The notes beneath the pieces were generated by a model that was not told where the DNA came from, did not search any database, and saw only the letters and a program-made list of their open reading frames with translations. 64,000 nt of DNA from Chiloscyllium plagiosum. Taxonomy: Eukaryota. Positions 810-56,066 of the stretch are shown here, piece after piece (the stretch's first letter is position 1; each line of letters starts with the position of its first letter). The stretch lies in the NCBI RefSeq assembly GCF_004010195.1, contig NC_057756.1, forward strand, positions 4,021,232 through 4,085,231, in the 5' to 3' direction. The translations under genes were made by a program, and so were the position numbers.

Positions 810-836
810 AAAGTAAACTCAAGGACTGTCAGAAAG
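810..836 (+). CDS. Candidate 27-nt micro-exon, phase 1-1, (E)SKLKDCQK
   Basis: ttcctacttcAG|AAAGTAAACTCAAGGACTGTCAGAAAG|GTGAGT: pyrimidine tract, consensus donor, no stop. Resembles exon 18571-18597. Confidence 0.65.
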
Positions 837-2065
837 GTGAGTGGTACACAAACTTTAATTCCTTGACAAAATAATTCCTGAATAAAACAGTTATGTTTTA
901 AGGATTATGATGTTTTAATTTGGAGCTTCCATTTGTATAGTTTTGTTTTCTGGGGATTAATGTAACTGTGTCGCCATTTCGGTAATCAGATATTGTTTAA
1001 GGAAAACTAATGTAAATTAGGGAGTCCCTCTTGATGTAATGAGGAAAATTTTATTAACTTACTTGTCAACATGAGGAACAGAGAAGTAATTTCTAGGTCG
1101 AAGGGACAATTTGTTCTCATTATCTTCTTATAATGTGAAAACCCCTATGGGTGCAAAAAATGTTTTACTTTAGGGTGTCTCAATGCGTGTAAAGATGGCT
1201 TGATTCTGTTTCGAAAAGAGAAATGCATTACCAGTGAACTGTGAGGAAATTTGTCATCACATTGCATTTCCATTTCAAATGTCGAGCCGAGAGGATTTTC
1301 ATTAGGACCATGTAATGGTTATTCAAAGTTGAGGAAACTGAAGTTCACTTTTTGATTTCACAATAAGGAATGCGCGTAATGTATTTGTGCAGAACATAAT
1401 AAATAGTTAATTCAAACATTAAGATGCAACAGGTTCTTTTTTTAGTGTTGGGAATTTTCAGTTTTTGATCTGATAGAACTAGGATTTTGCTGTTTGATTC
1501 GCAATCGACCAACTCATTTCTGTACATATTTTAGTTTAATCTATTCGGATCTTGTTCATTCAGGGCATTCACCGTTTATTTTGAATGCCCTAACTAATGA
1601 GGTCAAAGTCCAAATTAAGATCTATCTAGTCCAACAGTAACATCAGCCAGGGCCATAATGCAACCAAAAAGTGATTTATTTCTGTACAGATTGTATCGAG
1701 AGATAACGATGATTTATTCTTTCAACTTATTCAATTTCATATCTGGAAGATCGAACAGAATTATTGATTTCTCATCTTGCATTTTTGTTGATTAGTGAAG
1801 TTATTGTAGCTTCAGTATTTATCTCAACGAAACAAAGATTGTGAAGATACAATAAAGAATGTATAACACTGATTGTCGAATGTCAATTGACGTATCAATT
1901 AGGAGGGATTCTGTAAGATTGCAGTACTAGTTTCTTCCTTTCTGAATGTGACTCAAGAAATGAAGATAATACTATAAACAGTTAAGTACAACTGTCGATC
2001 TCTAAAACATTCATGTCTACGATTGTTCCATGCCCAAACGGGTGTCTCAGATAATTCTATTTTAG

Positions 2066-2080
2066 AAATGTTCTTTAAAG
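2066..2080 (+). CDS. Candidate 15-nt micro-exon, phase 1-1, (E)MFFK; an in-frame acceptor before 2051 would give 30 nt, (D)NSILEMFFK
   Basis: aattctattttAG|AAATGTTCTTTAAAG|GTGAGC. Confidence 0.45.
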
Positions 2081-2361
2081 GTGAGCTTGGGAGTTTGACA
2101 TTTTTGATCACATTGGAAATGTAGGTGGAACGTCCTAACGATTATGCTGTAACAAAGAATTCACCAACAAAATATATCTGGCTGTTTCCCTTTGAAATTG
2201 AGCGTTTTCGATCATTAAGTGAGAAGGGAAAGTGTATGCAACATATACGAAGCAAAATAGAGGTTGGGTTATAAGAGAAATAATGTACTGAAACCGTTGC
2301 AAGATGTACATTACCATACAGAAACAGCAAACGTAAATTACCATCTCATTCTCATATTTAG

Positions 2362-2385
2362 GTATAGGTTTTAACGAAGAACAAG
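2362..2385 (+). CDS. Candidate 24-nt micro-exon, phase 1-1, (G)IGFNEEQ
   Basis: ctcattctcatatttAG|GTATAGGTTTTAACGAAGAACAAG|GTGAGT. Confidence 0.55.
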
Positions 2386-2779
2386 GTGAGTCAATAATTT
2401 CTGCCTCCATTCAGTGTGTTCCTCGAGACTGTGCGTGGATGGAGCTACGATTGGTCTTGAAATCTTTGTGGCATGCTTGTCACTCTGTATGCATCTTGGC
2501 TGTTCTTCTGTCGGTACTCATGTTTTTGCAATATTTTTGTCATGTATAATGCACATTGTGCATATCCACCATTCTCTTAATGATATAACTTCTTGATATC
2601 TATTTCCATGATTAATTTATTCAGAAAATGTTACTCTATTACTGATCTCCTTGAACTGTAAAAAAAAAACCTTGCAGTGAACATTTGGACGTTATTTTAA
2701 AATTAAAAATCTGCATACATCATTATTGTGATCAGACTATCTGATGCTATCTATTGTAGTGTCAAAACTAGCTCATCAG

Positions 2780-3769: not shown

Positions 3770-4269
3770 NNNNNNNNNNNNNNNNNNNNNNNNNNNNNNN
3801 NNNNNNNNNNNNNNNNNNNNNNNNNNNNNNNNNNNNNNNNNNNNNNNNNNNNNNNNNNNNNNNNNNNNNNNNNNNNNNNNNNNNNNNNNNNNNNNNNNNN
3901 NNNNNNNNNNNNNNNNNNNNNNNNNNNNNNNNNNNNNNNNNNNNNNNNNNNNNNNNNNNNNNNNNNNNNNNNNNNNNNNNNNNNNNNNNNNNNNNNNNNN
4001 NNNNNNNNNNNNNNNNNNNNNNNNNNNNNNNNNNNNNNNNNNNNNNNNNNNNNNNNNNNNNNNNNNNNNNNNNNNNNNNNNNNNNNNNNNNNNNNNNNNN
4101 NNNNNNNNNNNNNNNNNNNNNNNNNNNNNNNNNNNNNNNNNNNNNNNNNNNNNNNNNNNNNNNNNNNNNNNNNNNNNNNNNNNNNNNNNNNNNNNNNNNN
4201 NNNNNNNNNNNNNNNNNNNNNNNNNNNNNNNNNNNNNNNNNNNNNNNNNNNNNNNNNNNNNNNNNNNNN
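3770..4269. other. Assembly gap, exactly 500 N
   Basis: Run of N; the round length suggests a placeholder of unknown true size. Confidence 0.99.
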
Positions 4270-4559: not shown

Positions 4560-7275
4560 GGAAGAAAAGTGGGGCTATAAGGCAGATATTCAGGGAGCGA
4601 GGATGGAAGCTTGGACTTAGAACAATCAGTGTTGCTATCATTATTGCCCATGCCACATGCGAGTGAAGCGAGGAACAAAGAGAGAGTGGAGCTGCATGGA
4701 TGGTGTAGGAAGGAGGGTTTTAGATTTAAGGATAATTGAATCTCTTTCTGGGGAAAGTGGGACCTCTGCATAAAGGATGGTCTTCAGCTGAACCAGAGAA
4801 GTACCAAGATGTTCAGTTTGAAATTGCTAATTTCAGGGGTTGGCGTGGGTAGCGTTTAAACTAATGCAGCATGGGAATGTGAACTTGAAATATAGTTACA
4901 GGGCAGTGATGTTCGGGATAGGTTTGCAATGTCGCGAGAGGACACCAGCAATCAGGATGTTGGTTTGAAATATGTGTATGTCAATGCCAGGAACATCGGA
5001 AATAAGGTGGGTGAACTGGTCACATGGGTTGGTACCTCGGATTTCGATGTTGTGGCCATTTCAGAGACATGGCTAGCGGAGGGACAGGAATGGTTGTTAC
5101 ATATTCCGGGATGTAGATATTTTATCAAGAACACAGAAAATGTTAAAAGAGACCGGAGGTTTGGCATTGTTAATAAAGTGTAAAATTACAGGAGCTGTGA
5201 TAACGTTTGAGGACTTATCTATTGAGATAGTTTGGGCTGAGGGTAGAAAGAGGAAATAAAATGTCACCCTTTTTCGGAGTTTTCTATAGGCCTATGAAAT
5301 GTTCAAAGGAATGAGGGGGAAGAATAGCAAAGATGATTCTCGACAGGAGCGAGAGTAATAGTGTAGTTGTTATGGAGGACTTTAAATTCCTCAATATTGA
5401 CGGACTGGGAATACTACAGTTCAAGTAGTTAAATGGGTCAGTTTGTTTTTCAGTGTTTGCAGGAGGTTTTCTGACATTTTATGTAGAGTGGCCAACTAGT
5501 GGCAATGCCATATTGGATTTGGTGTGGGGTAGTGAACCCGGGCAGGTGTTAGATCTGGATATAGGTGAGTACTTTGGCGATAGTGTCCATAATTTGGTTA
5601 TGTATACAATAAGCAATGGACATTGATTGGTAAATACCGCAGGGAAAATGGTTTGCCTCGGGGATAGGCAATAATTACGCGATTAGGCAAGATTTTGGAT
5701 GCATAGGATGGGGAAGGAAACTGCAGGGGATGAACACATTTGAAATGTGGAGCTTGTTCAAGCAACAGCTAGGGAAAGTCCTTGATAAGTACATACCTAT
5801 TAGGCATGGTGGTTGTGTCGAGAGAGGGAGACATATTTTTCTAAAGATATTCAAGTCTTTCTAATAAGGAGGAAGAATGCTTATGTGAGGCTGAGGCGTG
5901 AAAATTCAGTTAGGAGGCTTGAAACTTCTAAATTATCCAAAAAGAATCTAAAGAGGCGGTTAAGAAGAGTCAGGAGGGGACATGAAAATTTGTTGGCGGA
6001 TAGGATCAAGGAAAAACCCAAGGCCTTTGAAGGGAATATCAGGAATAAAAGAATAACTCGATTAGGGCTAAGGAAAGATAGTAGTGGAAAGTTGTGTTTG
6101 GAACCTGACGACACGGAGAAGCACTTAATGAATACTTATCGTCAGTATTCACATTAGAAAAGGGCAATGTTCGTGAGAATACAGAGATACATGCTACAGG
6201 ATTAGATGGGATTGAGACAAAGTGTAGGGTTTTGCAATTTTGGAAAATGCCAAAATATTTAAGATCCCAGGGCTGAATGGGATTTATCCGTGGATTCTCT
6301 GGGAAGCCAGGGAGGAAATTCCAGAGCCGTTGGCTTTGATTCTTATATCATTCTTGTCGATGCGAGGAGTGCCACAAGACTGGAGGATTGCAAATGTTTC
6401 AGTTGTTTATGAAGGCGAGTCGGGACAACCCTGGCAATTACAAGCCAGTTAGCCTGACTTCTGTTATGGGTAAGGTGTTGAACAATGTTCTGTGATATAA
6501 GATTTATAATCATCTGGAAATGAATAAGTTATTGAGAGATAGTCTACAAGGGTTTGTGAACAGTAGATCATGCCTTAGTAATCTTATTGAGTTCTTCGAG
6601 AGGGTGGCAAAATAGGTGGCTGAAAGTAAGGTGGTTGATGTGTTGTATATGGACCTCAATATGACGATTGAGAAGGTTCCAAACGGTAGGCTATTGCACG
6701 AAATAAGAAGCTTTGGGATTGAGGGTGATTTAACGGTTGGGATCAAAAATAGGCTTGCTGAGAGAAGACAGATGGTGGTGGTTGATGGAAAATATTCATC
6801 CTGGAGATTTTCTACCAGTAGTGTGCCACAAGGATCTGCTTTGAGGGCACTGCTGTCCCTCATTTCTATAAATTATGTGGAGGTGGGCATGGAAGGATGA
6901 ATTAGTAAATTGGCAGATGAGACGAACGGAGGCAGAGTTGTGTTTAGTGCTGAAGGATGTTGTGCATTACAGAGAGACATATTTAAGATACAGAGCTGTG
7001 CTGAGACGTTGGAAATGGAGTTTATTGCGGAAAAGTGTGAGGCCATTCCTTTCGGAAGAAGTAACGGGAATGCTATTGGTAAAATTTTTTGCAGTGTAGA
7101 TTAACAGAGAGACCTCACTAACGTTAAGTGCATTTAAATGGACATGGGACATACATAAGGATAATAATGGAACGGTGTAGGTTAGATGGGCATCACGATA
7201 ATTTGGCAGGTCAGCACACCATCGAGGAGGAATAGCCTGTACTGCGCTGTAACATTTTATCTTCTATGTTCTTAA
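4560..7275 (+). mobile_element. CR1-clade LINE (HER1-like), decayed: ORF1 esterase end, ORF2 APE endonuclease and RT
   Basis: Motifs KYVYVNARNIGNKVGEL...DVVAISETWL (endonuclease), KIPGLNGIYPWILWEAREEI, VDVLYMDLNMTIEKVPNGRLL and SVPQGSAL (RT). Ends in a TTCTATGTTCTT-type tail; many stops and frameshifts. Confidence 0.9.
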
Positions 7276-17471: not shown

Positions 17472-17525
17472 CCAAAATGCTTGAGGGATGTGTTAGCATG
17501 TCACAGATGTTAACTGGGATTCAAG
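17472..17525 (+). CDS. Candidate 54-nt exon, phase 1-1, (A)KMLEGCVSMSQMLTGIQ
   Basis: gtttccaattgtatAG|CC...GGGATTCAAG|GTATGT; open in the phase-1 frame. The acceptor choice is uncertain: the nearer AGs give 19 or 29 nt. Confidence 0.4.
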
Positions 17526-17892
17526 GTATGTAGTTGATTGTGGTATCGTGCATACTGAATCACGTGTAATCTTACGAAACAGTTTGTTACAGATATTAAT
17601 GTAGCAGAATACAGTTCAACAAATTAGAGAAAGCTTGACATTATCAAATTAATCATAGCATTTTTTCGTAGGATGAAGCGTCATCCCTCCTGACATTTTG
17701 TCATTAAGCAAGATAATGCGCAATAATTGTGGTTGCTCCGTACGAGGCAGTAGGACTGCAGTCTGTTCATTTTCCAATGATTTTCAAATGATCAAACCTC
17801 ATTTTTTTCAAAATTACAAATTATGTCCGTTTATTAATTTTTGCACAAATGAAGCAGGCCCAAACTTTTCAGAACACATTGTTTTTATTCAG

Positions 17893-17928
17893 ATATTGAC
17901 AAGATGAGAAAGGATCTCAAAATTGCAG
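17893..17928 (+). CDS. Candidate 36-nt micro-exon, phase 1-1, (D)IDKMRKDLKIA
   Basis: ttgtttttattcAG|ATATTGACAAGATGAGAAAGGATCTCAAAATTGCAG|GTGAGG. Confidence 0.7.
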
Positions 17929-18570
17929 GTGAGGATGAATGCAAATCTATTTCCCGATGTCATAGTGGTCTTCCAGATATTTGGATAATGAATCAGCTGC
18001 ATTGGGATTGAAGGGCACAGACAGTAAACCGGACATCAATATTTAGATGTTGCACAGGAGGCTTTCTTCTATTAAATTTATCATACCCAGTGTATCTAAT
18101 GTCTTTTTCAATATAAAAATAAAATCACAACCACATATTTTTGACAATCAGGGGCTGGTTCTCGCAACAATTTATGGTTTATTCCCAAGTGCGTATCCTT
18201 TGAGTTAAGCATGAATAGGGGTGATTAAACATCTGTGATCATGAAGAGGACTGCATCACATTAGTTAAAAAAGCTACAATCTACCAACAGAAAATTAATC
18301 TGCCAAAAAATAACTATAATGGGAGATGGGAATTACTGGTGGAAAAGTTTATTGGTGAAGTTAGCTGGGTAGCTCATTCACAATGCAAATTCATGATAAC
18401 AGCTCACAGTTTATTCCTATAGCTGCTGAGGGTATTACAAAGAAGCTTCATTCTCAACTCCACCCATCAACTGATGTCCATTCTCTGCAAGGTCTGTCCC
18501 AAATAATACACTCGGAACATTATTTCTTTATTTTTTAACCCACCTCTGTGCAAAATATCGCTTTTTGCAG

Positions 18571-18597
18571 AAGAAAGGCTGCAGAACTGCAAAAAAG
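18571..18597 (+). CDS. Candidate 27-nt micro-exon, phase 1-1, (E)ERLQNCKK
   Basis: cgctttttgcAG|AAGAAAGGCTGCAGAACTGCAAAAAAG|GTAAAA; same ExxLxxCxK pattern as 810-836. Confidence 0.65.
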
Positions 18598-20149
18598 GTA
18601 AAAAATAAAAACAAATCTATTATACATAACTAAATTTGGAATGAAACTCATTGATAAATTAATATTTTTGAAGAACCTCATATGTGCATTTTATATCGAC
18701 AATTGTTGTCCATACATTTTAATCTCGAATGAACTGCGTTTATTGGTTTTCTTTTGGAGTTTGTACTGTTTTCAAATTTTTGGATTTCAAATTTGAATTA
18801 GTACTGTTTTAAGATTTCCACACGCTCCCTTGGACCATTATAATTTATGCTTTCAACAATAACAGCAACAAATTGCCTCGTGAACATACGAAATTTTCAT
18901 TGTAGCAAATGAAAAAAAAGCAAACTGCTTTATGCTGTGTGAAATTAAGCAAAAGGAATCAATGGTCTCGTGAATAATAAAATATCCAGAACTTTATTTT
19001 TATTATATGCTATTTCTGAACAGATATTTATTACTCTTCGACAGTAAAGGAAACTCTATACATACGAAAAGGGATACAAATGTTTGTAGATCGAATATAT
19101 GACACAAGTTCATCACTGATGATCCAAGCAAACAGCAAATTCAAGCACAAAAAATACCATCGAAACCTTGCAAATTCTTAGCAATAAATATCCATCAATC
19201 ATAGTTTTTAGTTTTATTTCAAGATGAGATTTGTTTATTATCAGATCTTACCTGCAAGAAGATATTCTGTGTTTTTTTTAATTATTCCATAACCAGTCTC
19301 CCACAATATTTGTTTCTGCTTTCTCTTTTAAAAAACTTGCTCTCTCAGTTCTACACAGTTCAAATTGTATCGAGACATTCCACCTAGCTTTATTAATTGT
19401 GCAGCCAGATGTCGCAAAGAGCAATTTATTTCCAACTTCAGCTTTGAATTCCAGCACAATGAGACAGAGATTGTGAACTGTCCCCCCATGATGTCTTGTA
19501 AATTCTGAAATGCATGTTTTTTTCAAAAATTATTAATAATTTTCCATTATTGACAAAAATCAATATTGTTGCAAGATCGATGTTTTGTGCCCTGCAAGAG
19601 TCAGAATAAAATTGTATTCCCATTTCTGGTAAAGATGATCATCATGTCACAATATATGTTTTCAAATTGCTCAACGCAAAATATGCTTCATAATTAAGAA
19701 CATGTAGGCAACAACTATAGTAGATTGCGATGGTGAAATAAATGTTGTTTCACAGAGGGGCATTAAATTTAAATATATAATGCAGACCTCCGTATGTAAA
19801 CAGCTGGTGCAGTATATGCAGTATGTAATTGGATATTGTCTTTTACTTGTGAGCATATGAACTATGGTTGTAGGGAGACCATTTAGACATGACGTTAGGA
19901 TTCGACTTTGTTTTTCGTTATTTCACAACCCCTCTTCTTTTATCATCATCTCTCTGTCTTGAAAGCCATCTTCTCTGAATTACTGAGCTGCCAGTCTTGC
20001 TGTTCTGACAACCAGGTTTCAATTCCTGCAACGGAATGATATTCGCAATTTTAAACTGTTGTCCTTAATACATTTAAATTGCACGTCAGACTTGTTTTAT
20101 TAAATGAAGTAGTTTTCAATTTTACCAAATGCATATTTGCCTTAAACAT

Positions 20150-21060
20150 TCATAAATAGCAGAGGGAAAGATAGATGTGATTATTGAATGTCAGCCATTA
20201 GAGCTCGTGAACATCTTTACAGGCGTTCTTCAGGTAAAAGGACTTGTGCCAATAACATTTAGCTGCTTCATCAATGAGCTTCCGTCCATCATAATGTTAG
20301 AAGACAGATATTAGTTGATCATTGCACCGTGCTCATCACCTTTCCAACTTATTGAATTGGCTGAAGCTATCCACGTTCAAATGCGAAAGTACTAGAAAAA
20401 TATCCAGGATTGTGAGAACAAGACAGAAATTTGCCTTCACGCATGCAATCACAACCTCTAATTAAACGCAAATTACCCACCACACCGTGTCACTCAAGAG
20501 GGTTGCCAGCCCTGTATTTCTCACTGCCATATTCTAATCATTACTATTCATTAGAAACTAACTGGACATACTCTATTAATGCACTAGCGAGAAAGAAATT
20601 CAAATGATTGGAATAATGCAGGGGTTCCTGACTTCCTGACTCACAAAGCCTGTCGACTGTTTTAAATAAACAAGTCAGGAGTATTATGGATTACTGCCAA
20701 ATTGCCTGGAAGGCTGCAGCTCCAACGACATTCAAGAACCTTGAAATAGTTGTTACAAATTAACATCCATTGATTAGAATTAAATACACAAGCATCGACT
20801 CTACCAGTGACGCTCATTTATATTCTGTTTTCAGATTACAAGACATAACGCAGATATTTGACCAACATGCTTGCAAAACCACGACTGAACCACTTCCGAA
20901 TTCACAAAGTGCAGCAGAGACATGAAAACAGCACAATCAAGACCATCACCATTCTGAATTGCTAAAAAATTCATTCTTCTTGTATGTTGCAAGGAGTATA
21001 TCCTGAAATATTCTCCCTGAGACTGTTGTGAATTTTGAAAGCAAAAATGACCCAATGCTT
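20150..21060 (+). mobile_element. Old LINE RT/3' fragment (CR1/L2 group)
   Basis: 20222 onward reads GVLQVKGLVPITFSCFINELP, a decayed GVPQGSVLGPxxFxxFINDLP RT motif. Confidence 0.65.
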
Positions 21061-21560
21061 CTCGTTGCCTCCCATTTTAACACACTATCATATTCCTGGC
21101 GAACATCTCTCTACCTCGGCTTTGCTGCAATGCTGATTACAAGCTGGCTAAGAACACTTCATTTTCCATTTGGTCATCAGGCAACCTTCTGAACTCACGA
21201 TTTTTTTAGGAATTTGAGTGTTGATGATCTTCTACCTAATCCTCGCACACCAGACTTTGCCATCACATATGCTGTTAAAACAAATAATTCTTTGTCAGCT
21301 TACTGATGGTCCCCATGAAATGTTTCTCATTCTTTCAGATTGACCTGGATCCACTGTTTTGCCTGAGTAACCTTCGGACTCATTTTTGAGCACCATCTCA
21401 ACTCTTGGTTACTCCTTTCACCTGCCCCACACTTTCCTCAGCATATCTATCATTACTGCTAATTAAAAGCAATTCAGATGAAATGGAAATCTCAATTCCG
21501 TTTACTCACCAGGGATATTGTCAGATCTACTTGCTTTTTCCAGCGGTTTTTAGATTGTTT
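21060..21560 (+). mobile_element. Highly decayed Penelope-like 3' fragments
   Basis: GAACACTTCATTTTCCATTTGG resembles GAACAACTCATCTTCTGCC at 25372. Confidence 0.4.
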
Positions 21561-21679
21561 CTCAGTTATTTGGTGAGTGTATAAAAGAGTAAATAAAACA
21601 CAGCTAAAGAAGAGCGCCCATTAAACACCATAGTCATAAATGCTGCGTGGAGCCAGAGGACGCACATAGGTTTATAATT

Positions 21680-22420
21680 GAATTAATCTGCACTTGGTGA
21701 GGCAAGGATTAATCAAGATTAGTCAACTTTTTTTTTATGAAGTTGTGCTCATGTCTGACTGGCGTGACTGAAAAAATTGAAGTAGTGGACAGATTTGTAA
21801 ATGAGTGGAATTGCACTCACTGAATCTTCCTGGAGTTCAGAAAGGGATTTGGTAAAGTTTAACACAGGTTATGGATAGCGAAGGTAAACACCAATGCGAT
21901 CCAATGAAATTTGACTAAACGGATCGGAATTGGCTGAGTGACAGAAAGCAGTCCTTGATGATTGTGTTATCTTTATGAGACTGAAAGCGTCCGTCAAATT
22001 GTGTTCTACAGTAATCAGCGTTGACAATTTTGCTGTTTGAAGTATTTATCTGGAAAACTGTTCTGCAAATTTATGGATAATGTGAAACTTTGTGGCACTG
22101 CAAATGCAAGGGAACCTCAATTATCTGGCATTCGATTAACCTATTTTCAGATTATCCAAACAAGACCAAACGTTCTGAAGGCTTGGGAAACTATATTATC
22201 CAGCAGTCGATTATCTGGTATTCGATTAACCAAACGAAATACTCCCACCTATGTCGTTCGTAAGATTGAGTTTCCTCTATTATCTTCATATTACAGAGAG
22301 GTAAAGACGGATGCACCGAGCGAGATAACCACTGAAAAATGGAAGTCACCTGAAAGAAGTAGGAATTCATGCATTTGGGCGGGGCGAACAAGGCAACGAA
22401 TGCATGAAAAGTAAATTTTT
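21680..22420 (+). mobile_element. Decayed CR1 RT fragment interrupted by a MITE
   Basis: GAGTTCAGAAAGGGATTTGGTAAAGTT (a DFxKAFDKV remnant) and KFMDNVKLCG; resumes after 22280 with an ...MHLG remnant. Confidence 0.65.
22107..22279. mobile_element. Short non-autonomous DNA transposon (pogo/Tigger-like MITE)
   Basis: Imperfect terminal inverted repeats CAAGGGAACCTCAAT... / ...ATTGAGTTTCCTCTA. Internal direct repeat ATTATCTGG(C/T)ATTCGATTAACC at 22120 and 22210. Confidence 0.6.
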
Positions 22421-22719
22421 AAAACAGGACTTCCTGAAGAATATCAGCGAAACCAGAGTACCTGTGGAGAGAAGACACAGATAAAGATTATGTCACTTGG
22501 CTGCTCTTCAGAGCTGGAACCTATTAGGAAAACATAGAATGCCTGCTGAAGAGAGAGATTCAGAGTATGGTGTAAAGTAATAATCGGATATTTGGAGTCA
22601 GAGCCTCGAGGAGAAAGGCAGGTATGTAGGCAAAGGCATAAAATAAATGATACTGGTAAGCCAGGGAAAATAAAAACGTTCAATGGTAGGTGAAAATGAA
22701 TTTAATGCCCTGAAAGCAG

Positions 22720-25700
22720 CCGATGTGATCACATGCCTCTCGATGAAACCCACTGATACCACATGGACAGCAGACGACATGCAGACCAATACAATATGAA
22801 TCTGAACGTGATAACCAGTATAGACCACAAATTCAGCCACATCCGCAACCAACATCATCACCTACGCTACGCTTTCCACAACGTCCGCCACAACTGCCGC
22901 TGTTGCAAGCACGTCTGCCCCACTGATGCCATCACCTGTCACCACCGACACCCCGCAGATCCTTCAGTCACCACCTCTGTCACGCGGACGCCCGTGGTGA
23001 GCGTCTAGTCCATAAATGACGTCACCCCTTGTCCATCTACTATAACACACACTCCAGTTACAGTCTCCAGCTTCACTCCCAGCTCCAGCCATACACACAG
23101 TCCTAGCTCCCAGCCCAGCCGAGTTTATCCCATCGCCCCAGACTCACTTCACTGAGGAGGAACGATCAGTCATCAGCAAAGACCTGCCCTTAATCCCTCG
23201 CTGATCCCAGATTAATGCAATTAAATATGCATTGTGACATCGATTAATTCTTCCGTGCCTCTACCTCCAAGCTTATGTTTCCCATCAAGAATCCCGTCCA
23301 CATTCCAAGGATGTCTTCGCTCACCTCCAATACACTCCATCAACCTGGACACCCCATGCTGTACTGTCACCCGCCCTTGACCTTCTTACTTCCAACTGGC
23401 TGTGGGACATTAAGTGCCTCAACCTGTCCACCCCCTCGCCAACTCCATCTTCTCATCCTTACAACATGGAGCTCTCCACTTCCCCGCTCCAACCCTAAGC
23501 TCGTCATCAAACAAGCAGTGATAGTTTGGCGCATTGAACTCGACACTTTTGATGCCATGTGCCAACTTAAAGAAACTTCCTGCTACCACCACCTCGCCAA
23601 CTCCATCTTCTCATCCTTACAACATGGAGCTCTCCACTTCCCCGCTCCAACCCTAAGCTCGTCATCAAACAAGCAGTGATAGTTTGGCGCGTTGAACTCG
23701 ACACTTTTGATGCCATGTTCCAACTTAAAGAAACTTCCTGCTACCACCACCTCGGTCAGAACTTCACCTCCCATTACCAAACTATCATCCCTCAGACCGT
23801 ACACAACCTCATCACCTCAGTGGATCTCCCACCCACATGTTCCAACCACATTGCTCAGGAACCCTGGATCATCCAGTTCTACCTCCTACCCATGATCCAC
23901 AAGCCTGACTACACCGATCCACCCATTATCTCAGCCTGCTACTGCTCAACCGAATTTATCTCCACATACCAAGATCAAGTATAATCACCCAGATACACGA
24001 ATTCCCTACAGAATTTCGGGATACCACCTACACCCTCCCCCTCCGCCAAGACTTTTATTTCCCTGGCCCGTGATCGCTCATCTTCACCATGGACACGCAG
24101 TCCCTATACACAACTAGCCGCCATGACCCGGACCTCCAAGCCTTCCGTTTCTTCCTCTGCAGAGGTCACCACCATTAACCTTCCACGGAAACTATTTTGT
24201 TACGCTGAAGTGGTTTTCACACTCAATAATTTCTCCTTCATATCCTCCCACTTCCTTCAGACAAGATGAGTCGCTATTGCCATCCGCATGTGCCCCAGCT
24301 ATGCCTGTCTCTTTGTCAGCTATGAGGAACAGTCTATCTTCTGCAGGTACACTGGGAACACTCCCAACCTTTTCCTTCGTTACATTAATGACTGCATCGG
24401 CGCCACCTCGTGCTCACACGAGGGGGTTGAACAGTTAATCAAATTTACCATCACATTCCACCTGAACCTTAAATTCACCTGGAACATCTCAGACACCTCC
24501 CTCTCCCTCCTTAAACTGTCCATCTCCATCAACATTCACCGACTCAACACTGATATTTTCTGCAAACCTACCGACTCGCACAGCAACCTGGGTTACACCA
24601 ACTCCCACCCTACCATCTGTAAAAATGATATATCTTATTCCCAATTCCTATACATCTGACACTTGTGTTCCAAGGAGGACCAGTTCCACCAGAAAACACA
24701 TGCCTTGGTCTCTTTCTTTAAAGACTGTATTTTTTCCCTCCCACGTGTTTGATGATAGCCTCCAGCACATCTCATCCGTCCCGCACCTCTACCGTTGAAA
24801 ACCACCCCTCCAACCTCCACAGAGTCAGAACTCCCCGGTCCTCACATTGCAGCCCACCAACCTCCGTAGACATTGCATCATCCTTCGACATTTCTGCCAC
24901 CAACAAACGAACCCCACAACCAGAGATATATTTCCCTCCCCACTACATCCACTTTCCATAGAGACCGTTCCTTCCATGATTACCTCGTCAGGTCTACACA
25001 CTTCCCAACAAACCACCTAAACCTCACTGTTCCTTCCACTGCCACCGGAGGAAATGCAAAACTTGCGCCCACATCTCCCCCTCACCTCCATCCAAGGCAT
25101 TAAAGGAACCTTCCAAATCCATCAAAGTTTCACCTGCACTTTCACACATTTCATTTATTGTATCCATTATTCCCGATGCAGTCTTCTCTACATTGGGAAT
25201 AAAGGGCACCTAATCGCAGTATGCTTCAGAGAACATCTCTGTGACACCCGTTCCAACCAACCCCACTGCCCCGTGGCTGAACACTTCAACTTCCCCTCCC
25301 ATTCGACCGAGGACATGCAGGTCCTGAGCTTCCTCCATCGCCACTCCCTCTCCACCTGACGCCTTGAGGAAGAACAACTCATCTTCTGCCAGGGACCTTC
25401 CAAACCCATGGCATCAATGTGGATTTCACAAGTTTCCTCATGTTCCCTCCTGCCACGTTATCCCAGTTCTAAACTTACAGCTGAGCTCCACTCTCATGAT
25501 CTGTCGTACCTGGTTATCGACCTTCCCAGCTATTCTCTCCACCCTCCCCATCGACCTATCACCATTAACCGCACTTCCATCCATCGATTTCACTCACAGC
25601 TAGCTTGGCCTCAATCCCAGGCCCAGCCCCTCAAATTTATCTCTCTACCCCCGAGGTTCACTCGTTCCGTATGAAAGGCTTTTGACCGAAACGTCGATTT

Positions 25701-30981: not shown

Positions 30982-31189
30982 GTGAATAAGGGGATAATTT
31001 TAATTTCTCAATGTGCACATGTACAATCACTTGTTCTAAAGTGCATAAAGTTGTAAACAAAGTGACTAATGACACGCGGGCAAGAGCGATACCCTGATGA
31101 ACTAATTAAAATGTATCTAATTTAGTGTTTCCTTCAACAACAATGTACATCTCATCTATTGTCCATCCATAATTGCTCAGAGGAACTTT

Positions 31190-33325: not shown

Positions 33326-36210
33326 GAACACAGAACATAGAACGTTACAGAGCAGTACAGGCATTTTGGACCATGATTTTGTGCCGACCTGGAAAATTAA
33401 TCTGATGCCCAACTAACCGAAACCATTCGATTAGTATCCATATGTATGCTCAATGCCCATTTAAATGCAGTTTACATCAGTGAGTCTCCGACTGTTACAG
33501 GCAGGATTTTCCATGCCCCTAATATCTGAGTGAAGAAACTATCTCTGATATCTAAACTAACTCTATCATCCCTCAATTTAAAGCTATATCTCCTCGCGTT
33601 TGCCTTCACTATCAGAGGGAAAAGGCCTTTGCTGTCCACGCTATCTCACGCTCTGATTATCTTATGTATCAATTAATTCACTTCTCAAACTTCTTCTCGC
33701 CAATGAAAACAACCTCAATTCCCTCACCCTTTCTTTGCAAAACTTTCCTTCCATACCAGGCAACATCCTAGTAAATCTCATTTAACAGTTTCCAAAGCTT
33801 CCACATTCTTGTTATAATGTGGTGACTAGATTTGCATGCTTTACTGCAGGTACGGACTTACCAGTGTATTTAAAGCGAATGCATGACCTCATGGCTCCGA
33901 AACTTAATCCCCATTCTAATAAACACCAACACACCTTATGCCTTCTGAACAAGCCTATCAATGTGGAATGCAATTTTCACGGATTAACGCACATGGACAC
34001 CGGGATCTCTCTGTTCATCTACACTGCCAAGAATTTTACAAATAGACCAGTACTCTGCAATCTTGTTCCTTCTTCCGAAGTGAACAACCTCTCACTCTCC
34101 CGCAGGGATTTGCCATTCCTTTGCCCTGCTCTGCAACTGGCTTATGTCCCTCTGAAACTCACAACATCCTTTAGCAATATCTACAACTCTGCATTCCTTA
34201 GTGTCATCTGCAAATTTACTAGCCCATTCTTTTACGCCCACCTCCAGATCATATACAAAGATGACAAACAGCAGTGGCCCCAAACATATCCTTGTGTCAC
34301 ACAAATGGTACCTGAGATTCAGGATGAACATTTCCTATCAACCACCACCCTCTGTCTTCTTTCAACTAGCGAATTTCTGATCCAAACTGTTGAATCATCT
34401 TCAATCCCGAAACTCCGTATTTTGTGTCATAACTTATAGTGTGGAACCTGATCAAACGCCTTACTGAAGTCCATATACACATCAACCGCCTTACCTTCAT
34501 CCACATGTTGCCAACTCGAAAAACTCACTAAGGTTAGTGAGCCAAGACCTGCACTTCACAAAAACGGGGTGACTATCCCTCAACAAATTATTTATTTCCA
34601 GATGATTATAAATCCTACCTCCTAGAAGCTTTTCCAACACCTTACCCACAACCAAAGTAAGGTTCACTGGCCTATAATTGCCAGGGTTGTTCCAAATCCC
34701 CCATCTTAAAGAAGGGAACAAAATGTTCTACCTCCAGCTTTCTGGCACTACCTCTGTCCAGAATGGTAACATACACATCGAAACCAAAGGTTCTGCAAGT
34801 TCCTCCGAGGCTTCGCTGAGAATCTGACCCAGGATTCTTATCGATTTTCAGATCTTCTAAAATTGTTAAAACCTCCTCTTTGTAAATCTCAATCCCATCG
34901 AACGTTGTCGCCTTTATCTTCATATTCACACGAATATTGCCACTTTCAAATGTGAATACTGATGAAAAGTACACAATAGGCGCTTCCCAATTTCCTCAGG
35001 ATTCACACACAACTTTCCACTACTATCTTTGATTGGCGGTCATCTTACTTCAGTCATGCTTTTATTGCCGCTATGCCTACAGAAGGCCTTAGAGTTTTCT
35101 TTGCTCCTATCCGCCAGCAACTCCTCATTCTTCCTCCTCGTTCATCTATTTTCTGTCTTTAGATATTTCTGGCTAACTTATGACTCTCAAGCCTTCTAAC
35201 TGAGCCATCACCCCTGACTCTTATACAAACCTTCACTTTCCTCTTAAAAGAGCTTCAACCTCTTTCATAAACCATGGCTCCCTGTCTCGACAACTATCTC
35301 CTGCTTGATTAGTATATAGTTATCAAGGAGCCGCAGTAACTGTTCGTTGAATAAGCTCCACACTTCAAGAATGTCCATTCCCTGCAGTTTCCTGCCGCAT
35401 TCTATGCATCCTAAAGCTTGCCTAATTGCGTAATAATTGTCTTTCCCCCAGTTATACCTCTTTCTCTGAGGCATATACCTATCTTTGCCCACTGGTATTG
35501 TAAACATAACCGAATTAATGTCACCATAGCCAAAGTGCTCACCGATATCCAAATGTAACACCTGCCCGGTTTCATTATCCAGTATCAAATCTAATTTGGC
35601 CACCCCACTTGTTGGCCTGTCAACATATTGTGTCATAAAACCCTTCTGCACACATTCAACAAAAGTCGAAGGGTCAAATCTACTTGAACTATCCTATTCC
35701 CAATTAGCAAATATTGGGGAAGTTAAAGTCCCCCATAACAATTACCCTGTTACTCTCGCTTCTGTTGAGATCATCTTTGCTATCATTTCGCCTGCATCCC
35801 TCGAATAATTCGGAGGCCTATAGAAAATTCCTAACAGGGTGATGTCTCCTTTTCTGTCTCTATCCTCAGCCCAAACTACCTCAGTGGATAGGTCCTCAAA
35901 CGTTATCTCTTTAATCATCTTTACTGGTCTTGCTGAAATATGGGAATCTCGGAATCTGGAACAACCATTCACGTCAATCCTATAGCGAGATCTCTCAGAT
36001 GACCACAAAATCTAAATCCCAGATAATAACACATGCTGCAAGTTCATCCACCTTATTGCAGATTCAAAATCACATTAAAATACACACTTTTCAAACCAAC
36101 ATCCTGATTGCCGCTGCCCTCGCCCGATCTCGTAAACCAATCCCTGACCTCACAACCCTCAACCTTCCATACACTGGAACGATAATTGAGGTTCCCAACA
36201 CCCTGCAGCA
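33326..36210 (-). mobile_element. CR1/HER1-like LINE ORF2, near full length, decayed; same subfamily as 4560-7275
   Basis: Reverse-strand motifs GLKSVYFN, LLGIFYRPPN, TQYVDRPTSGVAKLDLIL, NPGNYRPVNLTLVVGKVLE, LGPLLFVIFVYDL...SKFADDTK. Tail (AGAACAT-like repeats) at 33326-33343. Confidence 0.92.
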
Positions 36211-36404
36211 TTAACTTTAACTTCACAATTTTAATACATTGTCTGAGCTGAGATGTCACTTTCTTACTTGTAAAAAAAATAAGCTATATCGAGAACGTGA
36301 TTTAAAAGAACTTCTCAGATTTGCATATTAATGATCCGAAACCAGAAACACATTTTAAAAGATGAAACACGTAACAGCAATCTAGATTTGGTTAAAGTAT
36401 CATT

Positions 36405-36532
36405 TCAGTTGCATGACACTGTAATCTGTTGCTATAAATTCTGTATTTTATGGCACTGCTCCACAGCTATCTGATGAAAGAACAGCGCTCCTAAAGCTAG
36501 TGGGTCCAAGTAAATCTGTCGGACTCTTGACT
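36405..36532 (+). repeat. Older, longer relative of the 51141-51230 hammerhead repeat
   Basis: CTGATGAAAGAACAGCGCTCCTAAAGCTAGTGGGTCCAAGTAAATCTGTCGGACT aligns with 51145-51201; the GAAA is mutated to TAAA. Confidence 0.7.
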
Positions 36533-37579
36533 TGTGAGTAGAGGGAAGTAGATTTTTGTGCACAATACCATGTGCATGCTACCCTTAATGCAACGTAAAA
36601 TGCTAACATGAATATATGTCAGTATCTATTCACGTGTATTGAGATTTTTAAAAAATGAAATTCGGACGCCAAAAGAAATGTGCTTGATCTGATTTCCAGT
36701 GCATTACAGAGATTAATGAAGACACAACATCAGAGCATAACAACAAGAATTCGTGATAGCCAAAATTGTAGACCCAGAAAACACACCCACATCCTTTGGA
36801 TGAAGAATCATAATTTAAAGTACTGTTTCGTCCAACAAAAGACATGGAAAAGTATTAACGTTGTTCCAATTAATCTGTTAAGACACTGACTTGTTTTTCT
36901 GAACGTAAATACTTTGGCGAATCATTTTATGCAACACAAACGTGACAGGAATCAAGATAGGAATCAAGGTGTGCAACTACAAAGAAGTCACACAATTTAT
37001 TTTAAGTTCGTGTTACACTGGAATGCCTTGAATGTCATGCCATTTCCTTTTTGCCTGCCAAATAATATTACTTAGCGTATTGCAAGGAATTAAATAAATG
37101 GCACTTTGAAGTTATTGAGCAAAAGCATTGAAAACAATGGAGCACTTTCAACGAGCAAATTGTTTATACGGCGTGTCATTGCTTCAAGCAATTAAGCAAA
37201 AACGTGGTCTACCAACTGGTGCTGACCCAACGAAAATTAGACTCAAAACTCTAAACTAACGTCGCACTTGTTTTCGCACTCCATGTGATGTGAATTATAT
37301 CAGATTTTGTGTCCGTTAAAAAAAACTTTAACTTCATACTTCTTCTTGACAGTAAATAGACATGAGTCATGTGAATGACATACATACTTCATTGGGAGCA
37401 CAATTGTTGATTTTGTCCTGCGAAAAGAACATTAGAAAATTCACAGGAAATTTAGCTATGGTGGATTAAATAGCAAACTGCTAATCGATTGATTTTAAAA
37501 ACATTGTGTCCAACTTATAATTATTTGGCTGCTTCCAGTGGCATTACATTTTATGAGTTTGTGATAATATGTTTTACAG

Positions 37580-37603
37580 ATGATTTGAAGAGGAAAAGTG
37601 ATG
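37580..37603 (+). CDS. Candidate 24-nt micro-exon, phase 1-1, (D)DLKRKSD
   Basis: atatgttttacAG|ATGATTTGAAGAGGAAAAGTGATG|GTGAGC. Confidence 0.65.
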
Positions 37604-37801
37604 GTGAGCAATATCAATGGGTATTTTACACGGAATGAACCATTGTTACATATGTAATGAACAGTAAAATTTAAAACATATAATGCACATTTGCTTCTGA
37701 TAAACGCTGTTGTAAGTAATATACGTTCGTGCAGTTTCCATATGTCATTTTTTTAAAAGTCAAAAAGTAATTAATCCATCCTCAATAAACTTCGTCAGAA
37801 T

Positions 37802-43507: not shown

Positions 43508-43543
43508 AACTACAAGATTTTGAAAAGCTCATAGAACAACTTG
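43508..43543 (+). CDS. Candidate 36-nt micro-exon, phase 1-1, (E)LQDFEKLIEQL
   Basis: ccatttatcgttcatttcAG|AACTACAAGATTTTGAAAAGCTCATAGAACAACTTG|GTAAGG; amphipathic spacing of L, F, L/I, L. Confidence 0.7.
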
Positions 43544-45451: not shown

Positions 45452-45478
45452 GAAATAAGTTGTGTCCAACAGATCAAG
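45452..45478 (+). CDS. Candidate 27-nt micro-exon, phase 1-1, (G)NKLCPTDQ
   Basis: attatttctatAG|GAAATAAGTTGTGTCCAACAGATCAAG|GTAAGT (perfect donor). Confidence 0.7.
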
Positions 45479-51128: not shown

Positions 51129-51140
51129 AGGACAGAACAA

Positions 51141-52525: not shown

Positions 52526-53457
52526 TTTTTTCTACACCTTAAAGATCGTATTTTTTTGTCTGTAATTAGCACCAGAAATTGCGCTTGCAATTATCACAAT
52601 CCCTCGAAAACCATTCAATTATATCTATAATTCTGTTTTATTGTCAGCACTTTCTCAACCAAAGCTCTGTCTCATGGAACATTTGCTCCTAATTTTAGAT
52701 CAGCAGTAGTGTCTCCCTTTAATACAAGATTGCAATCAAATGATTGAATTACATTGGTCAACTATTATGGATCATATGGAATCAGTTCAACACTTGTATG
52801 ATTTAGTTGTCAAAAGCAGGGCCAATTACTCTTCTTTTGCACATCACTGAACAAATTTTCTCTCAACTTCTGCCGAATTGCTACCAGGCGACATCCTAAG
52901 TCATAAGTAGGGAAAATAATTGACCCGTTTTCCAATTGGCTGAAAACAAAATCATAAATTCGGAAAATATTATACCACTGGAAAATGCATTCAGAATGCA
53001 ATGACTTAGTGGATTTTAAGTAAACGTCGTAGTAATTAACAGTTCCTAACAAAGTGATTACATTTTCTGCACAACAAACCTATCAGAAATTCAGGTTGCT
53101 TGATGAAAATCTAACATTATTTTTCTGGTCACTCCTTGTCACCTTTAAAATTGCATTTTGTTTTACTTTCTAAGGATCGAAGACTTATTTTATTTTAAAT
53201 TCTTTTACAGAATGTGAGATTTCGAAGAAACAAGTTTAATATTCAATCTGCTAATTTTAAGTTGGCGCAAAACTTTGTTTTGTCAGCTGTTTCTACTCCT
53301 TCCTATCCCTTGTTTCCAAAACATCTGCTTTAGGAATAATTACCAGTACATGTAAACTTCAATCTTACTGTTCAAACTGGCTATATATCCGATATTGATT
53401 AAGATATTTGTTACCTCTACTCAGTCAGTAATTCTAAACTTCTACACTTCCAAATAG

Positions 53458-53484
53458 GAATGGCAGATGCACTCAAGAAGCTCG
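53458..53484 (+). CDS. Candidate 27-nt micro-exon, phase 1-1, (G)MADALKKL
   Basis: ttctaaacttctacacttccaaatAG|GAATGGCAGATGCACTCAAGAAGCTCG|GTCAGT. Confidence 0.6.
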
Positions 53485-54879
53485 GTCAGTACTTGATTTA
53501 TTTCTAGTATTCAAATGTATGTCAGCTCTGTGCGAAGTTTCAAAGCAAGAGTCAATGTTCACGCTATGTATCAACAGTTGTGAAGAGTCCATGTTTTCGT
53601 ACACAGACAACGTTCAGATCAGTTTATCAAATGAATTACTGTGCATCTTTTCCTCTTTCCCTGAAAAAAGCTGAACGTTTGTGAAAGGGATATTAATAAT
53701 ATTACAAGTCAGGAAAAAATGTTGCATCACCCAATTGGAATACATATCACAACTCTTCTGCATGCTTTACAATGATTCTGGAATGTACATTAGTCTTCAA
53801 TAAATCAAATAATGAACGAGGTCAATCTGCTTTTATCAAAATGGTGTTAATATAGCATCAATTTGCATTAGACGTCGTGTGGAAAGTGCATTTTCTTGTT
53901 AGTAGACAGGATTTTGGAGAGTAGTGCTTCTCTCTTTTTAATATGATTGTTTACTTGTGAGATCGCTTACTTGTGGACATCGCTTACTGGCCAATATATT
54001 TATTTCCCGCCATGAGTTGTACTTGAAGTTCTAACATTGGAGCACTTTTTTTAGATATATACTGTCCGTTTGGACCTCTCCAATTTGCTATTGCAATAGC
54101 GAGATTCGACTTAAAAGAGGGGATTTACAACATTGTTCGGGCTTAATATAAGCCTCCACTCTCATCTGTCATAACCTAATGGAAAACAATGTAAAATGTT
54201 ATTTCAGTTGTGAATTGTCCTTCCATTCACTGCTCAATGTCAATCAGTTTCGTTCTGCCAAGGTGTAACGTGATTAAGTTGTCAAGATTGGGGCTTTTTC
54301 TTTAGCTAACACACAATGGCAGAAAGGGTGTGATAGTTTCACACAGCCAGTGGTCGCAGCTGGACGTGAAGTACCACGTGGAGTCATAAGATCAGCTGAC
54401 ATTCACCAAGGGAACACCAATTAGGGAACTTCGTCCGGTTTCTCCAAAGGAGCAGTTCCGAACAGTTTACAACATGAATTCTAATGTGGGTCATGCTCAT
54501 AAACCCTTGTTTAGCTATAGTCCCAAATTGTTTTTCTGTGAAAGGTCGAGGAAACTACTTATCCTACAATATTTTGGACTATTTAGGTAATTGTAGAATC
54601 AGAACAGCAAATAGCAAATCAGTGTGACAAGGTTACTTACTTTCCTTGCACAAATGTATACATTTTCTAAAGGGCCTCAACTTATAAAGAGGAAGATAAT
54701 GTAACAAATGTTGTTAACACGACATCCAAATAAAACTTTGGTGAGGTTGTAAACAGAGAGGTTACGATTGAAAGAGATAAATAACAGAAACCTAAGTGCA
54801 GATAATTCGAACAAGTTCTTCTATCCAAACTTAAAGTGAAGCGTGACAAATGCAGATTGAAACATAAACAGTGAAGATA

Positions 54880-55110
54880 TTGGTATTCTTACTGTCTGTC
54901 CAACTCTTTGTCTCTCGCTTTGGGCTGTATTCCGACCTATCATTTACTGCTTACCCCTGTTCCCATCTTATCCTCTGCATATGAGCCAATATTTTCCAGG
55001 CTATCATCAGTTCTGAGTGAAGGTCACTGGACCTGAGTAGTTGACTGTCATTTCTCTCACAGATGTGGCCACAAATGAGGAGCTTTTCGAGTAATGACTC
55101 GTTTCGTTTT
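54880..55110 (+). mobile_element. Decayed Penelope-like 3' terminus with hammerhead remnant
   Basis: TTCTGAGTGAAGGTCACTGGACCTGAGTAGTTGACT at ~55011-55046 keeps stem II GGTC/GACC; the core is mutated. Confidence 0.5.
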
Positions 55111-56039
55111 TGCTTAACTGGATCTGCAATTGTTTCTTTTTTTTTGAATTGAGAAAAAGATAATGTCTTATCATCTTAAATGTGAAGCATGTTAAACTAT
55201 CACTGCGATTCCAACTTAGCTGCAGTCCAGGCCAACGTGTAATTCATGTTTCTATTAAAAAAAAACGAAAAAAGGAGAGAAAATTCGTGTCACTGTTTTG
55301 CTCTGCATAGAACTGACCAAAGCACATGCAATAGATAAGATCATATTGTAAAGTTCCACGATCAATTTGGATTGTACAATTGAGAGACAATGACAAAGTC
55401 TCTAATGAAGGAGATATAAGAATCATTGTTCCCATTTAATAACATTCTTTTTCGAATATAACACCATTGGCATAATTTTCTTCTGAGCGTGTAAACTCTT
55501 TTCAACATGCACGCAATTTATCAGACCACTGGCTGGGAATTGTGCAATATTATAACTTTTTCTAATGCAATAACAGTGTTCTCAGCCCGCAAATCACAGC
55601 AAAGTCATTTTGAGCAGCTATTTTCCACTGACACGACGGTATACATTTCAAACAGCATTCAAAATGATTCCAATCTCTGTCACCTTTTCTCTCCAGCATC
55701 TTAGAAATTCACTTTGTCCATTGTCTATGTTCAATTGCAGAAGTATGCACCTTATGGAAAGTTGACTCAACTCTTGGTTTTCAAGGCTGCGAATTTTCGA
55801 ACTGAATATCACGAAGTTTGAACTAATGACTTTCTCTACTTTTTCATGATTACATTTTCTTCGTCATTTCACAAACAAACACACACTGTTCCACACATAT
55901 ACATGCGTATATCTGTCAAGTTGAAGTTTCATGGAAGAAGATAATTAAATTAAGTCAATCCATTGAATCATTGACGAATATTTTATAATTTTCCACTTAA
56001 CAATTGCGAACTGGACTAATTGTATTCATTAATTCTCAG

Positions 56040-56066
56040 CTGCATTAGTGGATCAAAGTCGAAATG
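56040..56066 (+). CDS. Candidate 27-nt micro-exon, phase 1-1, (A)ALVDQSRN
   Basis: gactaat (branch-like) tgtattcattaattctcAG|CTGCATTAGTGGATCAAAGTCGAAATG|GTAATT. Confidence 0.5.

Follow-up and report, generated by a model that had tools for sequence, protein, structure and literature searches.

The stretch analyzed here, called the window throughout, comprises 64,000 nucleotides (nt) of the shark Chiloscyllium plagiosum (contig NC_057756.1, positions 4,021,232 to 4,085,231 of the forward strand; G+C content 38%), and the element in question is an array of very short exons, or micro-exons, scattered along its + strand. A sequence-only reading of the window had proposed 14 such exons as the mid-section of a gene for a coiled-coil protein. 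All 14 segments check out in their coordinates, lengths, phase-1 openness, and peptides, and each of the 14 is preceded by a pyrimidine-rich tract and AG and has G as its last base, followed by GT. The present study shows that exons of this kind exist as a strand-specific, length-specific, heptad-patterned family, to which nine of the 14, all of 27 or 36 nt, can be assigned with backing from several lines of evidence; the other five (15, 24, 54, 18, and 24 nt) are without such backing. Further along the same strand lies a phase-1 exon for a B30.2 (PRY–SPRY) domain, and related protein models occur in other cartilaginous fishes. The earlier observation as a whole is partly confirmed and its interpretation supported: the core inference, that the segments form the middle part of a + strand gene for a coiled coil whose micro-exons are symmetric and of phase 1, is borne out. 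The picture needs correction on three points: five of the exons lack support, the gene reaches far past the window in both directions, and the likeness to triadin and schistosome micro-exon genes is one of architecture only.

The case for the exons begins with an asymmetry of strand and length. Over 264 kilobases (kb), that is, the window and 100 kb on each side of it, 88 candidate exons are found on the + strand and 59 on the − strand once nested alternatives are collapsed, and the excess is concentrated in two lengths. Qualifying 27-nt candidates number 27 on the + strand and 0 on the − strand, and among 36-nt candidates a K/E/D/R/Q fraction of at least 0.44 is reached by 11 of 12 on the + strand and 0 of 8 on the − strand. 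Among the candidates counted in the window alone, the mean K/E/D/R/Q fraction of the peptides is 0.44 on + versus 0.23 on −. Removing every frame and peptide filter leaves 32 AG..GT pairs of 27 nt on the + strand and 5 on the − strand, with 7–17 at neighboring lengths; the unfiltered 36-nt counts are 19 and 14. No + strand excess is seen over the 264 kb for lengths of 15, 18, 24, and 54 nt (+/− counts of 8/6, 7/6, 10/6, and 4/7, respectively). The excess thus supports the nine claimed exons of 27 and 36 nt and gives no support to the remaining five; chance is the likeliest explanation of the 15-nt and 54-nt segments. The splice sites of the claimed exons are decent, not exceptional, with acceptor scores of 1.0–11.5 and donor scores of 5.4–12.6 in a simple log-odds position weight matrix, which was built on general consensus frequencies and serves as a ranking heuristic only. 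The claim that the segments lie outside repeats holds for the six exons within positions 17850–37650, where the depth of DNA run X1 is 7–21, compared with hundreds to hundreds of thousands in repeat bins. No sequence variants appear in that run within these six exons, a null result that is uninformative at 168 exon bases.

The two lengths correspond to two exon families. The 36-nt family reads like E-N-x-K-L-R-E-D-L-R-x-x and the 27-nt family like E-x-K-L-x-x-C-x-K, and because the intron flanks of their members are mutually unrelated, the families are not copies of a dispersed repeat. In a leave-one-out profile test that took in all AG-N36-GT and AG-N27-GT sites irrespective of splice score, 2 bits or more were reached by 10 of 12 members of the 36-nt family versus 0 of 90 − strand sites, and by 9 of 15 members of the 27-nt family versus 2 of 109. 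The same scan added two 36-nt exons upstream of the window and none within it. Position profiles were drawn from 17 36-nt and 23 27-nt exons, six uncharged or repeat-borne 27-nt candidates having been dropped by eye. Residues L/I/V/M/F/C occupy positions 2, 5, 9, and 12 of the 36-nt exons at frequencies of 0.71, 0.82, 0.71, and 0.35, and, in the 27-nt exons, positions 4 and 7 at frequencies of 0.83 and 0.39; proline is nearly absent (1 of 187 and 3 of 184 residues, respectively), and some 27-nt exons carry cysteine at a core position. A 36-nt exon joined to a 27-nt exon gives a module of 21 residues, exactly three heptads, with core positions 2-5-9-12-16-19 and a spacing of 3-4-3-4-3.

This pattern extends to the chain as it lies in the window. 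When the 27- and 36-nt exons alone are taken in genome order, a single heptad register runs over the first four of them, and the mean window score is 3.01 with three phase changes, compared with −0.31 ± 0.46 after within-exon shuffling of residues; the full 14-exon chain of the sequence-only reading scores 2.10 with 14 phase changes, and over its segments of 15, 24, and 54 nt the score drops to ~0. In all, at least ~40 exons lie within the 264 kb, with introns of ~0.1–25 kb. The proline-containing exon GNKLCPTDQ is a probable break or linker in the rod, and an exon resembling it (G-x-K...Q) follows a 36-nt exon at +100008 from the window start. In the doubtful 54-nt segment, the first nine residues resemble the 27-nt family in their L (position 4) and C (position 7). 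Between the claimed exons that end at 2385 and start at 17472, 15 kb apart, there is an assembly gap of 500 N (positions 3770–4269), which could conceal an exon. No convincing longer exon of the same gene emerged among phase-1 candidates of 55–240 nt or charged candidates of 55–500 nt, and Pfam searches of open reading frames of at least 110 residues (18 in the window, 101 in the flanks) returned retroelement domains only. A 151-nt + strand candidate exon with an acceptor score of 12.1 was noted at ~4.106 Mb of the contig (+84821 to +84971 from the window start); its frame is out of phase with the micro-exon chain.

A degenerate 27-nt exon pattern with its splice dinucleotides, searched through the 3.56-Gb genome, occurs at 51 places, compared with 17 for a reversed control. 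Nine of the 21 matches outside repeats fall on the window's own contig (C47, 0.3% of the genome), at four places and with consistent strands (Table 1); at one of these, 10 kb at 1.89 Mb, there are nine candidates on the − strand, including typical 36- and 27-nt exons, and none on the + strand. As a separate matter, about 30 of the 51 places, sorted by eye, represent one interspersed repeat (e.g., C1:8751026 and C2:21652825) in which the AG and GT are included, and which could yield spurious micro-exon predictions elsewhere.

Inspection of the flanks for a B30.2 exon, as the sequence-only reading had advised, turned one up downstream on the + strand. It was the one C47 match among 150 scored matches in a genome search with Pfam SPRY, and it lies 492 kb past the window. 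The best acceptor of this exon (7.0) is of phase 1, the phase left open by every micro-exon. The first Met of the frame comes only at residue 39, within the domain itself, and for that reason the exon needs upstream exons. The open frame amounts to a full B30.2 domain and matches Pfam SPRY (4.6e-18), and among structures in the PDB it matches TRIM58 (3.5e-19), TRIM21 (~5e-18), pyrin (9e-18), and BTN3A1 (1.1e-16). Five 10-kb samples were taken across ~0.8 Mb toward this exon. Family exons are present, on the + strand only and with none alike on the − strand, at 3.80, 4.30, 4.45, and 4.569 Mb of C47, the last of these 8 kb upstream of the B30.2 exon, in the sample C47:4568701-4578700, whose positions 503-538 and 6968-6988 are examples of the last micro-exons; the 3.80-Mb sample includes family exons of 21 and 33 nt, and the 3.50-Mb sample, with 29% N, is ambiguous. 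Two near-identical 42-nt candidate exons seen 1.5 kb apart at ~4.295 Mb, with the same splice scores, are most likely a local duplication or repeat and not family exons.

On C47, each of the two closest paralogues of the B30.2 exon has micro-exon matches upstream of it on its own strand: those at 0.52–0.61 Mb for the paralogue at 0.9945 Mb, and those at 1.90–1.92 Mb for the one at 1.2966 Mb. On contig C37, a K-L-x-E-D-L-R exon match lies 33 kb upstream of the B30.2 exon at 20.72 Mb. The genome contains a small family of such loci, three on C47 and probably two on C37. C37 also harbors, at ~9–34 Mb, a very large cluster of B30.2 and B-box exons with several open frames of more than 1,000 codons, which supplied most of the 150 scored matches in each search and is presumably a TRIM-type expansion.

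Table 1. Exons and related features in the window and beyond it. Positions are those of the window unless a contig is given; splice scores are acceptor/donor.
Feature	Position	Strand	Reading	Splice score	Remarks
36-nt partner exon	49-14 nt upstream of window start	+	first half of module with 810-836
27-nt phase-1 exon	810-836	+	ESKLKDCQK; second half of 21-residue module	5.3/12.3	leave-one-out 8.8; fits family pattern of genome search
15-nt claimed exon	2066-2080	+	unsupported	1.9 (acceptor)	heptad register score drops
24-nt claimed exon	2362-2385	+	unsupported by its class	7.2/12.3	good splice sites; heptad register broken
54-nt claimed exon	17472-17525	+	doubtful	1.0 (acceptor)	register score ~0 across it
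36-nt phase-1 exon	17893-17928	+	DIDKMRKDLKIA; first half of 21-residue module	3.9/12.6	leave-one-out 14.5; X1 DNA depth 7-21
27-nt phase-1 exon	18571-18597	+	EERLQNCKK; second half of module with 17893-17928		leave-one-out 12.7; family pattern match; register continuous with 17893-17928
18-nt claimed exon	27417-27434	+	unsupported, though possible		18-nt cassette block known from isoform models of ray relative
27-nt phase-1 exon	28638-28664	+	DLRMLELAY	3.9/5.6 (modest)	27-nt class; leave-one-out <3
36-nt phase-1 exon	30946-30981	+	EVEKCKKAHKSA	11.5/9.0 (best of set)	leave-one-out 5.1; low X1 DNA depth
24-nt claimed exon	37580-37603	+	unsupported by its class	2.8/9.4	K/E/D/R/Q 0.75, plausible composition
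36-nt phase-1 exon	43508-43543	+	ELQDFEKLIEQL	8.0/7.8	charged 36-nt class
27-nt phase-1 exon	45452-45478	+	GNKLCPTDQ; contains Pro	5.6/11.8	27-nt class
27-nt phase-1 exon	53458-53484	+	GMADALKKL	4.7/5.4 (modest)	27-nt class
27-nt phase-1 exon	56040-56066	+	AALVDQSRN	5.8/5.4	27-nt class
B30.2 exon	C47:4577499-4578016	+	177-codon open frame; begins like PRY-SPRY
27-nt pattern matches	C47:0.52, 0.61 Mb	+
27-nt pattern matches	C47:1.895, 1.917 Mb	-
27-nt pattern matches	C47:3.10, 3.13 Mb	+
27-nt pattern matches	C47:4.02-4.11 Mb	+	three known exons
B30.2 paralogue	C47:0.9945 Mb	+	59% identity
B30.2 paralogue	C47:1.2966 Mb	-	41% identity
B30.2 paralogue	C37:22.23 Mb	-	40% identity
B30.2 paralogue	C37:20.72 Mb	-	33% identity

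Collectively, these data favor a model, with a probability that we put at roughly 75%, in which the window falls inside a giant shark gene on the + strand that encodes a long alpha-helical coiled-coil rod with a B30.2 domain at its C-terminal end. Both the link between the window exons and the B30.2 exon and the function of the product are matters that we infer; if the sampled exons belong together, a single gene would extend from 3.80 Mb or earlier to 4.578 Mb, at least ~0.78 Mb. The rod would be encoded almost wholly by micro-exons, mostly of 27 and 36 nt, each of them a multiple of three in length with G as its last base, which would begin after a single base carried over and be spliced to its neighbors in a constant phase. 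Such a rod may pair chains and set the distance between an N-terminal part and the B30.2 domain, which would bind the ligand, the role that it has in TRIM, pyrin, and butyrophilin proteins. Skipping or duplicating symmetric exons would alter the length of the rod and keep the frame. The proposal that any exon can be skipped in frame holds at the structural level, every exon being symmetric, and the counterpart that would be expected, block differences between isoforms, is seen in the models of relatives from the electric ray and the elephant shark.

The match closest to the B30.2 exon (P0004, 59% identity) is a 178-residue "hypothetical protein / B30.2-SPRY" of another shark, a model that consists of nothing but the open frame of the B30.2 exon there, begun at an internal Met; the second (P0005, 48%) is a fragment of 169 residues. 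Identities then fall to 45% (P0010), 42% (P0012), and 41% (P0050), with the TRIM-type bulk at ~30–35% and, among longer database proteins, teleost TRIMs at 31–35%. An exhaustive scan of 1.84 billion representatives yielded single-domain relatives with N-terminal extensions. The relatives bear automatic names, given here as in their sources: "nuclear-pore anchor-like" for P0050 (XP_042192744.1, 1,697 residues, from the elephant shark Callorhinchus milii), "Zinc-binding protein A33-like" isoforms X1–X5 (353–378 residues) in an electric ray, "TRIM39-like" in a catshark and in the whale shark, "TRIM69-like" in a skate, and "TRIM58" isoforms in the elephant shark. In four of them (P0050, P0158, P0012, and P0160) Pfam finds SPRY alone, without RING, B-box, or immunoglobulin (Ig) domains, and an ...ISIV-type C-terminal end is common to the relatives and the B30.2 exon. 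The family thus extends to chimaeras, rays, skates, and other sharks. The C. plagiosum locus shares two characters of this cartilaginous-fish group of coiled-coil and B30.2 proteins, having both a heptad rod of 12+9-residue modules and, provided that the two are linked, a B30.2 domain of the subgroup.

The closest full-length relative is XP_042192744.1. It comprises a hydrophobic stretch with a basic cluster, which judged by eye looks like a membrane anchor, then a coiled coil of ~1,400 residues with E-L-x-x-C-Q motifs, and then the C-terminal B30.2 domain. Its rod gives 13 twelve-residue matches to the exon profiles, compared with 1.5 ± 1.3 in composition-matched shuffles, and seven modules of 21 residues, compared with 0.06 ± 0.26, the shuffles being a lenient control that any coiled coil beats to some degree. 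The likeness to the C. plagiosum locus lies in the B30.2 identity, the ...ISIV end, the match of the coiled coil to the 12+9 profiles, and the Pfam result; the difference lies in a long D-P-T-G-S-T-D-K repeat tract, which is absent from the stretches examined here, and in its being an automatic chimaera model, with a name that reflects coiled-coil likeness only. At the other end of the size range are relatives with short rods (218–378 residues). Among the relatives, the electric ray isoform models differ by blocks of six (18 nt) and nine (27 nt) residues, and those of the elephant shark by a nine-residue block directly before the B30.2 exon, with an older model lacking a block of seven residues (21 nt). 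In these gene models, D or A is the first residue of every block that differs, and the residue after the block is G, E, or A, as would be expected of phase-1 exons ending in G.

Several results weigh against a single giant gene. Candidates comparable to the claimed exons, counted at the thresholds of the weakest claimed member (15–54 nt, a multiple of three, phase-1 open, last base G), number 24 on the + strand of the window and 21 on the − strand, with 12.1 ± 2.8 in first-order Markov simulations, and by this count the set is not above chance; an equal number of − strand candidates had been named in advance as grounds for abandoning the gene, and what is nearly the case in the window alone is overturned over 264 kb for the 27- and 36-nt classes. 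The heptad register is not continuous along the chain of the window, as the three phase changes that persist in its reduced form attest, so the chain may lack exons or contain false ones. In RNA data for positions 17850–37650 (20 kb), reads fall on repeats only: run X5 has 328 reads, all in repeat bins, in the ~2% of the run that was read, run X6 has 0, and the contigs of X7 cover repeats only. X5 and X6 are polyA-primed single-cell libraries and as such probably 3′-biased. Protein database searches returned no close full-length model of the gene and no protein containing the exon at 17893–17928, the 52-residue open frame around it having drawn four candidates, none of them scored. At the N-terminal end, the first 247 residues of XP_042192744.1 reach at best E = 9 against this genome, and a genome search with V-set found none near the loci among the 150 of 1,319 candidates scored. 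Finally, the array is connected to the B30.2 exon through 10-kb samples, between which another gene or a gene boundary is possible.

The strongest alternative, which we consider possible though distinctly less probable than the model above, is a true butyrophilin- or BG-type receptor, in which Ig and transmembrane exons would lie further upstream and the array would be a hugely extended cytoplasmic heptad tail preceding the B30.2 domain. The analogy with butyrophilin and chicken BG heptad exons, drawn before the downstream, same-strand, phase-1 B30.2 exon had been found, proved apt. Butyrophilins follow the same building plan, with a B30.2 exon after a small number of heptad exons, and the locus shows both small symmetric heptad exons (27, 36, and, at 3.80 Mb, 21 nt) and a single terminal B30.2 exon; by analogy, its architectural plan is that of the butyrophilin lineage. 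Symmetric phase-1 exons are the usage of Ig-superfamily genes, and the hydrophobic and basic start of XP_042192744.1 could, to the eye, be the transmembrane exon of a 5′-truncated model. Chicken BG, as described in PMC4046983, is a clustered multigene family in which 13–36 symmetric exons of 21 or 24 nt encode a long coiled coil, with alternative splicing or read-through among the tiny exons. Its exons, however, hold one heptad each and are closely packed, whereas here three heptads are shared by a 27/36-nt pair and the introns are long; BG proteins have an Ig V domain and no B30.2, whereas the present locus showed a B30.2 exon and yielded no Ig exon. Cartilaginous fishes are reported to possess butyrophilins, which vary in their number of heptads (PMC12841164). 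Butyrophilins have IgV/IgC ectodomains and few heptads, in contrast to the present relatives, which have no Ig domain in the four scanned and rods of tens to hundreds of heptads. The V-set result, for the 150 of 1,319 candidates scored, also tells against a receptor of this type, as does the B30.2 exon itself, whose similarity to butyrophilin domains is no greater than that to TRIM or pyrin domains.

TRIM and pyrin proteins likewise have a coiled coil and then a B30.2 domain, and they include the best solved-structure matches (TRIM58, TRIM21, and pyrin). To our knowledge, TRIM coiled coils are short and are not built from micro-exon arrays. The RING and B-box that define TRIMs are absent, by Pfam, from the four relatives, and a genome search for B-box found none on C47 among the 150 of 312 candidates scored; by the RING/B-box criterion, the predicted protein is not a TRIM. 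Likeness to triadin and to schistosome micro-exon genes is architectural only, and triadin was set aside since it is KEKE-rich and not heptad-patterned. Two further ideas were dropped: non-fibrillar collagen-type exons, which have the same 9n lengths and would require Gly-X-Y, which is not present; and the 63-nt stalk exons of CD23-type C-type lectins, for which no lectin evidence was sought once the B30.2 exon had been found. What sets the locus apart from known systems is the exon sizes of 27 and 36 nt, their number and spread (~40 in 264 kb), and the retention of B30.2, so far without Ig, RING, or B-box. No description of such a gene was found in the open-access full-text literature searched.

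An unlikely alternative, weaker than a butyrophilin-type receptor, accepts the array and places the window exons and the B30.2 exon in separate transcription units, so that there would be two or more genes, or else a decayed, non-functional array. The very large distance, which was sampled only, speaks for a division, as do the RNA reads on repeats alone, the B30.2 exon modelled by itself in another shark (P0004), and the existence of short-rod relatives. Yet every clean sample from 3.80 to 4.57 Mb has family exons on the + strand with none alike on the − strand, the B30.2 frame has no usable start and a phase-1 acceptor, and the three arrays and three B30.2 exons on C47 pair by strand and order; moreover, the 1,697-residue relative shows that rods of such size exist. 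Against decay, the 264 kb contain 14 36-nt exons, every one of them open and heptad-patterned, as are the 27-nt exons listed. The notion that there is no gene, and that the eye merely selected AG...GT pairs arising by chance in AT-rich DNA, draws on the near-equal counts in the window and on an admitted preference for in-frame hits, and it deserves almost no credence: for the 27- and 36-nt exons it is already refuted by the counts of 27 versus 0 (32 versus 5 with no frame filter), the family likeness under leave-one-out, the position-specific heptad pattern, and the same architecture on the opposite strand at the paralogous 1.89-Mb locus.

Should transcripts confirm the giant B30.2 rod gene, it would be among the most extreme vertebrate micro-exon genes, with the tiny symmetric exons of a rod-shaped B30.2 protein scattered across hundreds of kilobases. 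The gene escapes standard annotation, with only the B30.2 exon represented in another shark, as the 178-residue hypothetical protein, and the automatic names of its relatives ("nuclear-pore anchor-like," "TRIM39-like," and "A33-like") are misleading. The locus would offer a natural system in which to ask how splicing defines 27-nt exons within huge introns, and it bears on the tuning of coiled-coil length by exon number and on relations among the butyrophilin, BG, and TRIM B30.2 lineages. A bolder extension, which we regard as doubtful, envisages a family of megabase-scale cartilaginous-fish genes that would encode membrane-anchored, B30.2-tipped rods of more than 1,000 residues from at least 100 cassette micro-exons, with combinatorial control of rod length and B30.2 reach, and that would represent a missing architectural link between butyrophilins and BG.

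The window also contains repetitive elements. Retroelement remains occupy positions 60190–63154 on both strands: the − strand open reading frame at 60929–61930 matches RVT_1 (1.1e-10), a + strand fragment at 62242–62709 is a second RVT_1, and the frame at 60384–60962 has a weak GIY-YIG match (0.0021, below the Pfam cut-off), the pairing of RVT_1 with GIY-YIG being typical of Penelope-like elements. An extremely abundant short repeat is present at 30068–30164 and 25687–25789 as inverted partners ~4.3 kb apart; the bin at 29748–30408 has a summed X1 depth of ~350,000, clear X5 RNA reads are confined to this repeat within the stretch covered, and joints of opposite strands at 25763/30068 occur in RNA and DNA runs alike. 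Lastly, a 158-nt unit is repeated 2.1 times at 98% identity at positions 23428–23754, within a high-copy repeat region.

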